DNA of 16,935 nt from a virus (IMGVR_UViG_2698536549_000010:1-16935), one strand, 5' to 3'; numbered from the stretch's first letter, positions 4,074 through 4,285 are shown. Notes: generated by a model from the sequence alone, not told the origin. Numbers and translations: made by a program.

Positions 4074-4226
4074 TCAACTTTTTTTCAACTCTACATCGCA
4101 AGCACGCCGTAATAAATCGCCCTTATCGTTTGAGCAAAGACTATTTTTCTCAAAGCATGATATTAAGAGAAAGATTGTGATAATTAAAGCAACCATCATT
4201 GGTACATGTTTTTTTAATTTTAACAT
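4074..4226 (-). CDS. small membrane or lipoprotein-like ORF (50 aa), below the ORF-track length cut-off
   Basis: Hand translation of the minus strand gives MLKLKKHVPMMVALIITIFLLISCFEKNSLCSNDKGDLLRRACDVELKKS. AGGAG lies 6 nt upstream of the ATG (plus coordinates 4233..4237). The protein has a basic N-region, a hydrophobic core and a lipobox-like L-I-S-C. It sits downstream of, and in the same orientation as, the regulator gene. Confidence 0.4.
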   Translation of the reverse strand: MLKLKKHVPMMVALIITIFLLISCFEKNSLCSNDKGDLLRRACDVELKKS

Positions 4227-4260
4227 CTTTTACTCCTATGATTGCCGCCGCGATTCCCCA

Positions 4261-4285
4261 CACCACGGCGCTGGTGGTTTTTATT
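4261..4285 (+). terminator. weak plus-strand hairpin plus T-tract, antisense to the small-ORF leader
   Basis: CACCA (4261..4265) pairs with TGGTG (4272..4276) around loop CGGCGC, followed by TTTTTATT. The stem is only 5 bp, so this is weak. Confidence 0.25.

Follow-up and report, generated by a model that had tools for sequence, protein, structure and literature searches.

A three-cysteine peptide gene behind a probable ribbon-helix-helix regulator gene in the cargo slot of a prophage-embedded phage satellite

The small open reading frame and its product

The viral DNA record IMGVR_UViG_2698536549_000010:1-16935, analysed here over its full length of 16,935 nucleotides and referred to as the window, carries on its minus strand a small open reading frame (ORF) of 50 codons which lies directly behind a gene for a ribbon-helix-helix (RHH) protein, within a phage satellite that is itself inserted in a lambdoid prophage. 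An initial annotation had pointed to this ORF as a possible small toxin or exclusion protein, loosely Hok/Gef-like, and all sequence features named there are present at their positions, including the hydrophobic core MMVALIITIFLLISC and the promoter-like element TGTGATAAT. The proposed combination of basic N-terminus, hydrophobic segment and strong Shine-Dalgarno (SD) sequence indeed belongs to a genuine small protein gene, as judged from homologues found in profile searches and from synteny.

In the product, MLKLKKHVPMMVALIITIFLLISCFEKNSLCSNDKGDLLRRACDVELKKS, a basic N-terminus precedes an apolar segment, and the C-terminal tail of 27 residues has cysteines at positions 24, 31 and 43. In matching genomes the 50-aa form has no RefSeq annotation, and related copies in public records bear the label 'hypothetical protein' only. 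The SD is retained as AGGAG or AGGGG in the E. coli-type variants (alignment A1), while in most of the distant variants it reads AAGGA or AAGGT and is located within the 3' end of the upstream gene; no SD motif of the latter type is found in the 3' end of the upstream gene of loci L014 and L015. The normal stop codon is lost in two alleles (L004, 1424-1687, minus strand; P0002). In one of them TGA is changed to TGG, which gives a product of 87 aa annotated as WP_266177826.1, and in the other a change at the 3' end lengthens it to 59 aa, so that the peptide seems to tolerate additions at its C-terminus.

Peptide family and evidence for coding

Chance cannot account for the ORF, as a HMMER profile search of 1.84 billion representative proteins retrieved seven representatives with E-values from 2e-26 to 1e-6. 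A word-indexed search with the peptide returned its own cluster only; a 47-aa Citrobacter homologue was found with the profile of four E. coli alleles, and IMG/VR adds ten further loci of the family. The product is one member of a family of 47-53-aa peptides that had no name before and that occurs in E. coli, Citrobacter and metagenomes. In alignment A6 the residues S23, C24, C31, D37 and C43 are invariant and the cysteines are spaced as C-x6-C-x11-C, within a signature that reads M-[KR]-K, an apolar stretch of about 15 residues, [LIF]-[KR]-S-C, x6, C-G-x-x-E-x-D-[ILV]-[LM]-[RK]-x-x-C-E-K-x-L. Among 115 stretches that match the pattern in species-representative genomes no relative was confirmed.

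Between distant members the synonymous divergence (dS) is saturated and the nonsynonymous divergence (dN) amounts to 0.4-0.7. Most of the distant pairs compared share an amino-acid identity of 0.51-0.56 in the sense frame, while none of the five remaining frames exceeds 0.41, and substitutions decrease from the third over the first to the second codon position. The close alleles of the E. coli and Citrobacter type, with a DNA identity of 82-87%, all retain the start codon and are free of internal stops, and their sole indel is a 3-nt deletion that keeps the frame. Their dN/dS is 1.1-1.9, concentrated in the N-terminal half, where the divergence is 33% versus 9% in the C-terminal half, and substitutions are distributed evenly over the codon positions; such values are compatible with conflict-driven evolution. 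Judged from these sequence comparisons, the small ORF is a genuine, hitherto unannotated protein-coding gene.

Table 1. Features at and around the small ORF; positions are counted from the first nucleotide of the window.
Feature	Position	Strand	Details
Small ORF	4074..4226	minus	ATG 4226..4224, stop TGA 4076..4074; 50 aa + stop
Shine-Dalgarno AGGAG	4233..4237	minus	spacer to ATG 6 nt
YlcI/YnfO-family, ribbon-helix-helix-like protein, 101 aa	4281..4586	minus	NF041551; RefSeq annotation
Candidate leftward promoter/operator region	4609..4664	minus	TATACT (4622..4617), -10-like; read from sequence
Intrinsic terminator after the RHH-small ORF unit	3913..3947	minus	11-bp stem (GGCCACC core), then UUUUCUUU
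Exchangeable cargo cassette with small ORF	4021..4245		flanks 3788-4020 and 4246-4800 common to satellites with other cargo
Promoter-like site of the initial annotation (antisense)	4157..4184	plus	ATGATA-16-GATAAT with upstream TG; TGTGATAAT at 4176-4184
Hairpin and T-run of the initial annotation	4261..4285	plus	-6.3 kcal/mol, z = 0.06 versus shuffles
Stop-free frame, 402 codons	3766..4974	plus	antisense to small ORF and RHH gene
Nested Icd/Kil-like gene, 66 aa	4774-4974	plus	own AGGAG; NF033153, 5.7e-18

Probable regulator gene upstream and cargo slot

In every locus examined an RHH-type gene is situated directly upstream of the small ORF on the same strand, and the homologues, like the window ORF, belong to the regulatory zone of PICI-type satellites. 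The protein encoded in the window matches NF041551 with E = 2.8e-18 and 65.7 bits (cutoff 30), whereas the RHH proteins of distant satellites reach 15-19.5 bits and thus remain under this cutoff; a weak match to Pfam PSK_trans_fac is obtained for the RHH protein as well. The YlcI/YnfO-type protein is probably the leftward regulator of the satellite. The gap between the two genes is 54 nt in the window or 3 nt in distant satellites, where the RHH protein has 57-59 aa, ends in ...RKELQxRGIEPKG and has its stop codon 3 nt in front of the ATG of the small ORF. No sense promoter is predicted between the RHH gene and the small ORF, and the unit is closed by an intrinsic terminator of -19.4 kcal/mol (z = -3.4, 0 of 200 shuffles as stable) that diverged satellites retain with paired changes (A1, A4). 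Because of this layout, co-transcription of the two genes is inferred.

Upstream of the YlcI/YnfO gene a motif, GAATCACA / TGTGATTC, occurs in three copies on the sides of the TATACT element, and by sequence these copies are candidate operators for autoregulation. This motif of 8-11 nt is found around TATACT as TGTGATTCAGT twice and as GAATCACA in inverted orientation. The candidate promoter region faces the divergent Icd-like/primase operon, and the RHH gene thereby occupies the position of a master regulator.

The cassette with the small ORF is present in 18 of 5426 complete E. coli genomes, as compared to 743 that contain the left flank (searched part, 3900-4020). In O157:H7-type satellites the slot holds a basic soluble protein of 57 aa (WP_000130015.1) instead. 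Out of 80 loci from IMG/VR in which the RHH gene is closely related, seven carry a member of the small ORF family; the other cargos comprise a basic 57-80-aa protein, RelB (PF04221, 1e-30), a DUF3800 protein and an unknown protein of 195 aa, and at further loci of this set two unrelated small peptides with a transmembrane segment and cysteines (45 and 50 aa), or nothing at all, are found (alternative-cargo loci: L010, 2624-2797, minus strand; L030-L109, downstream of the RHH gene). The basic 57-80-aa cargo family, which is common in O157:H7-type satellites, is characterized by …RKRRRRK…HESERFAPCAFxLExFLKEY and has no credible family match. Since it resides in a hypervariable cargo slot, the small ORF belongs to the accessory ('moron'-type) genes and not to the core machinery of the satellite; it is an exchangeable accessory gene rather than a fixed partner of its RHH neighbour.

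This exchangeability bears on the possibility that both genes form an addiction or abortive-infection module, with the RHH protein, encoded first as in type II systems, as antitoxin and autorepressor and the translationally coupled small peptide as membrane toxin. An RHH gene followed by a small ORF after a gap of 3 nt is typical of type II operons, the RHH proteins weakly resemble VapB-type antitoxin models (E = 0.017-0.018), and the slot of other satellites is occupied by a RelB antitoxin gene. However, the pairing is not obligate: the same RHH types precede unrelated cargos or none, and the peptide gene is found behind at least eight RHH variants. Furthermore, RHH proteins of 57-59 aa offer no room for a toxin-binding tail, and a specific, co-inherited pair of toxin and RHH antitoxin with a toxin-binding extension was not found. 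The placement of the RHH gene at the master-regulator position, divergent from the replication operon, argues against such a module too, and a membrane peptide that is inserted co-translationally would be hard to neutralise by a cytosolic DNA-binding protein. A toxin-antitoxin pair of this type is consequently considered rather unlikely.

Host satellite

To E. coli chromosomes the region is 98-100% identical. The host element of about 10 kb (approximately 1376-11390 within the window) resides inside the large-terminase gene, terL, of a lambdoid prophage, the two halves of which are found at 368-1375 and 11394-12515, and an imperfect repeat, CTGGATGnAGGG, is present at both junctions (1366-1377 and 11390-11401). 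According to the RefSeq annotation of the best match, the element encodes an integrase, an AlpA-type helix-turn-helix protein, BRO-N, YlcI/YnfO proteins, an Icd-like protein, DUF4222, a primase, the single-stranded DNA-binding protein SSB and a prohead protease/capsid fusion. Helper-embedded phage-inducible chromosomal islands, or PICIs, are ordered into the zones Integration (int, AlpA), Bro, Replication (primase) and Late, and reside within a late gene of a helper prophage; A:Terminase_1:245 is one of the sites on record (PMC10111431). The same order of zones (Integration, Bro, Replication, Late) and the insertion in a prophage terminase gene are observed here, with the small ORF located in the regulatory ('Bro') zone of this PICI-type satellite. 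PICIs are known to hold immune genes in accessory regions (PMC11364771), and superinfection immunity is conferred by a related PICI of E. coli in which no defence gene can be recognised (PMC11773190).

Compared with its best E. coli match the window is mosaic between 4793 and 7961, over early genes of the replication operon, and it contains a run of 50 N bases at 5726-5775.

Probable membrane topology and lipobox

Throughout the family the N-terminal flank bears a charge of +2 or +3 without any acidic residue, the apolar run comprises 13-19 aa, and the C-terminal domain is of mixed charge. This would be consistent with an N-in/C-out topology, either as signal-anchor or with a cleaved signal peptide, and with a disulfide-capable tail that is most likely exposed to the periplasm; charge balance is what places the C-terminus outside. 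AlphaFold2 predicts a helix from residue 7 to 26, a loop and a second helix from 38 to 49, with low confidence (predicted local distance difference test, pLDDT, of 66).

The residues LISC had been described as lipobox-like. In the window allele they do fit PROSITE PS51257, but 10 of the 11 variants compared fail the rule that was applied (PS51257 and [LVI][ASTVI][GAS]C), nine of them by a K or R at position -2 and one by an in-frame deletion leading to LLTC; the failing variants read LKSC, IRSC, FKSC or LLTC. PS51257 is satisfied by the window allele and by its read-through derivative in AREA_492 (L004), which has the same LISC box, and the difference comes down to a single AAA-to-ATA change (K to I). 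From its sequence, lipidation of the window allele is possible, although it is not a property of the family. A small exclusion lipoprotein had been proposed as a fallback. The context fits an envelope protein of the exclusion type on a mobile element, whereas the canonical lipobox is specific to one allele.

A true lipoprotein, cleaved before Cys24 and acylated, might act in the manner of the Cor/Llp-type receptor blockers or of the colicin-lysis/BRP-type envelope perturbers. The LLISC sequence agrees with both lipobox patterns, a cysteine stands at position 24, lysines are present close to the N-terminus, and the size of the precursor as well as that of the mature form (27 aa) correspond to colicin lysis proteins. 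The confinement of a passing box to the window allele and its L004 derivative, owing to one nucleotide change, and the absence of a match to any lipoprotein or lysis-protein family of Pfam or NCBIfam argue against it, so that a lipoprotein function of the window allele appears unlikely on this reading of the sequence. Two particular families were rejected. The colicin-lysis/BRP proteins are alike in size and signal peptide, but no profile match is obtained and most members of the peptide family have no lipobox. An Rz1-like o-spanin was considered for the shared MLKLK start; the tail has no proline-rich region, an enclosing Rz gene is missing and other members of the family do not conserve this start.

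Hok/Gef likeness and antisense RNA

A membership in the Hok/Gef family, which had been raised without being claimed, finds no support. With PF01848 (HOK_GEF) no match at E <= 10 is obtained for the window ORF and three relatives, as compared to 1.7e-24 for HokC and 1e-23 for HokB from MG1655 as controls, and alignment of the family profile by hhalign yields 4.2% versus HokC and 0.2% versus HokB. The likeness to the MIVALIV segment of Gef is real, with 7 of 13 identities to HokC in the hydrophobic segment, but it is local and falls into the least conserved part of the family. With 47-53 aa and an apolar run of 13-19 residues the peptides are within the range of type I toxins (hydrophobic, <60 aa), a size that is not specific to toxins.

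The layout of a type I toxin-antitoxin locus that had been read from the opposite strand does not hold either, as neither the antisense promoter nor the terminator is conserved. The promoter-like site is present, but only one such site occurs in 2 kb versus 3.4 expected from shuffled sequence, and by the same rule it is missing from seven other family members; it is judged to be a chance match confined to the window allele. The hairpin with its T-run likewise exists, but it is as stable as shuffled sequence, lies within the flank that is common to satellites with a different cargo gene, and has its T-run disrupted in the variants O177:H21 and OkiPb01701. Given the gap of only 3 nt, there is no room for a Sok-like module in the distant members, and a mok-like frame is impossible there for the same reason. 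In the window such a frame of 38 aa starts with GTG (4266..4150) and overlaps the small ORF, and it is shortened to about 17 codons in the STEC299 allele, as read from alignment A1. A search of Rfam at E <= 10 gave terminator-type noise only (isrD with 20.6 bits versus a cutoff of 37; ctRNA).

A locus of the Hok/Gef kind would imply a membrane killer, the translation of which is held by a plus-strand antisense RNA of about 95 nt at approximately 4190-4285. The length of 50 aa, the basic N-terminus, the hydrophobic segment with its identities to HokC, the L-C pair at residues 30-31 and the existence of a TG-extended -10-like site and a hairpin with T-run on the plus strand are all in keeping with it. 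Set against these traits are the failed profile searches, the chance level of the promoter and the hairpin, and the small gap without a conserved mok-like frame. In addition, a strong and apparently free-standing SD and co-translation with a regulator would be the opposite of Hok-type translational silencing. Such a locus is very improbable; at the level of sequence the Hok and antisense-RNA hypotheses are largely refuted, and an RNA-controlled killer role of the peptide is unlikely. A look-alike of the Hok type that is convincing by eye but fails every defining test should not be propagated as toxin-antitoxin annotation.

Opposite-strand eta/kil-like frame

On the plus strand the small ORF and the RHH gene are covered by a long open frame that contains no stop codon versus 11-26 in the other five frames; for the part 3766-4280 alone the shuffle p is about 1e-4. 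The frame is open in nine of nine E. coli loci (359-617 codons) and likewise in nine of nine additional loci with the small ORF, where it spans 280-570 codons and the source is for the most part another genus. In all 18 loci checked a nested gene of the Icd/Kil family stands at its end; the frame is recorded for the window and for L002-L006, L008-L014 and L022-L029. It runs through all seven small-ORF cargos and all eight basic-protein cargos and is broken by the larger cargos only, namely RelB, DUF3800 and the 195-aa protein. In P4, Kil constitutes the in-frame C-terminal part of an eta frame of 214 codons and matches NF033153 at 1.6e-21. BLASTP of the Icd-like protein against P4 Kil gives no match, though both match NF033153. 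Translation of eta from a late promoter of P4 prevents immunity-specific termination, whereby transcription reaches the replication genes (PMC10111431). On the simplest reading of the sequence, the plus-strand frame would be the eta/kil counterpart of these PICIs and would be translated, and the operon of RHH gene and cargo would lie antisense within it. An eta/kil-type leader would be expected to contain a CI/C4-type immunity RNA with seqA; in scans for C4 and isrK, with a limit of E <= 1 for the whole window and of E <= 10 for 3760-4300, no match was obtained. In two O157:H7-type satellites (L009 and L010, approximately 2133-2400, plus strand) an N-terminal fragment of BRO-N is fused in frame to the eta-like frame, resulting in one frame of 430-471 codons that extends from just past AlpA to the stop codon of the Icd-like gene.

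The overlapping frame could depress dS and help to explain a dN/dS of about 1 among the close alleles. It also offers a route by which the ORF of the E. coli lineage might remain open while no longer under selection as a protein, either by an eta/kil-like constraint from the plus strand or by chance and recency. The dN/dS of 1.1-1.9 and the flat codon-position pattern of the E. coli and Citrobacter-like alleles, the plus-strand frame that is stop-free through the ORF in all members and the two alleles with read-through extensions would be expected from such a loss. In contrast, three diverged groups of E. coli alleles retain start codon and SD without an internal stop, the apolar character survives the strong nucleotide divergence of the N-terminal half, the three cysteines are kept, the one indel is in frame, and the distant members show a clear coding signature in the sense frame. 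A loss of protein selection is accordingly regarded as improbable.

A further reading takes the cargo slot to be used on both strands, with the three-cysteine peptide made together with the RHH protein from the minus strand in the quiescent state, and an eta-like leader into the Icd/Kil-primase operon made from the plus strand upon induction. The peptide, periplasm-exposed or released, would then be a new single-gene exclusion or defence factor, possibly a signal, and any cargo in the slot would therefore have to stay stop-free in the antisense frame. This combination is rather unlikely as a whole; it would, if true, represent an unusual dual-coding constraint on an accessory hotspot.

On the minus strand, antisense to the 5' end of the eta-like frame and within the left flank of the cassette (3788-4020), a candidate small RNA of about 70 nt is located at approximately 3793-3879. 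Its extended -10 element, GTTGATATAAT at 3879-3869, is invariant in seven diverged satellites, and the RNA would comprise, besides a terminator of 12 bp at 3823-3796, a hairpin on the 5' side and UUAAUUGUUC in single-stranded form. It belongs to no Rfam family, and its trans-complementarity to nearby transcripts is no better than that of shuffled seeds. An identification as Esr41 was rejected, since Esr41 lies in SpLE1 (PMC5286369). The role of this RNA could resemble that of P22 sar or P4 CI.

Discussion

Taken together, the preferred reading is that of an envelope peptide which is co-expressed with the satellite regulator and serves as an accessory factor in the conflict between phages and satellites, to which a probability of about 0.5 is assigned. 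The YlcI/YnfO-type RHH regulator and the small peptide would be encoded on one leftward transcript that ends at the strong terminator, and translation of the peptide would either be driven by its strong SD or be coupled to that of the regulator gene. With either mode, it would be made whenever the regulator is made, i.e. in the quiescent state. The peptide would then act by binding a component of the envelope, with superinfection exclusion or defence as its most likely role; this last step, suggested by analogy, is the more tentative part of the reading and falls somewhat short of an even chance within it.

Several points weigh against this interpretation. The peptide and its relatives belong to no family in Pfam, NCBIfam, PHROGs or PADLOC, the best noise from these libraries being of transmembrane type (OppC_N, E = 0.26; CbiB, 0.072), and because these four resources are blank the exclusion or defence role is drawn from position and analogy. 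tblastn of the peptide gave no match in the phage or plasmid collections, which makes the gene a rare one. An apolar stretch of 15 residues is short for a transmembrane helix, and the peptide could therefore be cleaved and released rather than stay anchored; its C-terminus-out orientation is drawn from charge balance. Finally, a dN/dS of about 1 with a flat codon-position pattern in the E. coli-type alleles could just as well mean that constraint is relaxed, or that it stems from the overlapping frame on the plus strand.

The host element, the insertion in the terminase gene and the eta logic of P4 have been published before. What is added here is modest, namely an unnamed family of small proteins with a clear signature, its fixed position behind an RHH gene, the nature of this position as a cargo hotspot, and the antisense embedding in an eta/kil-like frame. 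Small proteins of mobile elements are systematically missed, and a tiny envelope peptide that is made beside a regulator would be a concrete candidate for the superinfection immunity of satellites. Moreover, further very small accessory factors could be sought in the compact slot that follows the RHH gene.

Comparison with known systems

The accessory regions of Gram-negative PICIs and P4-like satellites (PMC11364771; PMC9122126; PMC10085698) share with the locus described here a short exchangeable slot at a fixed position between conserved flanks, filled with unrelated genes in each copy, including a toxin-antitoxin component. In contrast to these, the present slot is located directly behind the RHH gene inside the Bro zone, and the majority of its cargos, very short at 45-80 aa, escape recognition by PADLOC. 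The eta/kil and immunity region of P4 (PMC10111431) is similar in having a long stop-free frame after the AlpA/Bro genes, with a nested gene of the Icd/Kil family (NF033153 in both cases) at the end of the frame and upstream of the primase operon. It differs in the length of the frame (359-617 codons in the nine E. coli loci versus 214 in P4), in its C4, isrK and CI-type RNAs, of which none was detected in the window, and in that the frame of the window is antisense to a protein-coding operon of RHH gene and cargo that is unannotated in the P4 record.

With Hok/Gef (PF01848) and its mok and Sok elements the peptide has in common a length of about 50 aa, a basic N-terminus, a single hydrophobic stretch, a C-terminal tail that is polar and contains cysteine, an L-C pair near residue 30 and the location on mobile DNA. 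Neither sequence or profile homology nor a mok frame or a conserved antisense RNA accompanies this resemblance, and the small ORF is instead the second gene of a unit headed by a regulator gene; its SD is strong, and its product has three invariant cysteines (C-x6-C-x11-C).

Comparable in genetic setting are the repressor-linked exclusion genes, such as lambda rexAB, lactococcal Sie2009, S. thermophilus Ltp, phi80 Cor and T5 Llp. As proposed for the small ORF, an envelope product is encoded next to, or co-transcribed with, a regulator of maintenance and is made in quiescence, whereas these proteins are of 60-280 aa and unrelated to it in sequence. True lipoproteins are present among them (Ltp, Cor and Llp), in contrast to the peptide family, which is generally without a lipobox. 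In its architecture the peptide resembles MgrB, a small bitopic regulator of 47 aa with N-in/C-out topology and two functional periplasmic cysteines. Both are of similar size, start with an N-terminus of the MKK type and contain one hydrophobic segment followed by a short tail with spaced cysteines, although the peptide does not match the Pfam MgrB family and its gene is borne by a satellite and not, as mgrB, by the chromosome. By analogy, this likeness suggests that the peptide acts by binding a membrane protein.

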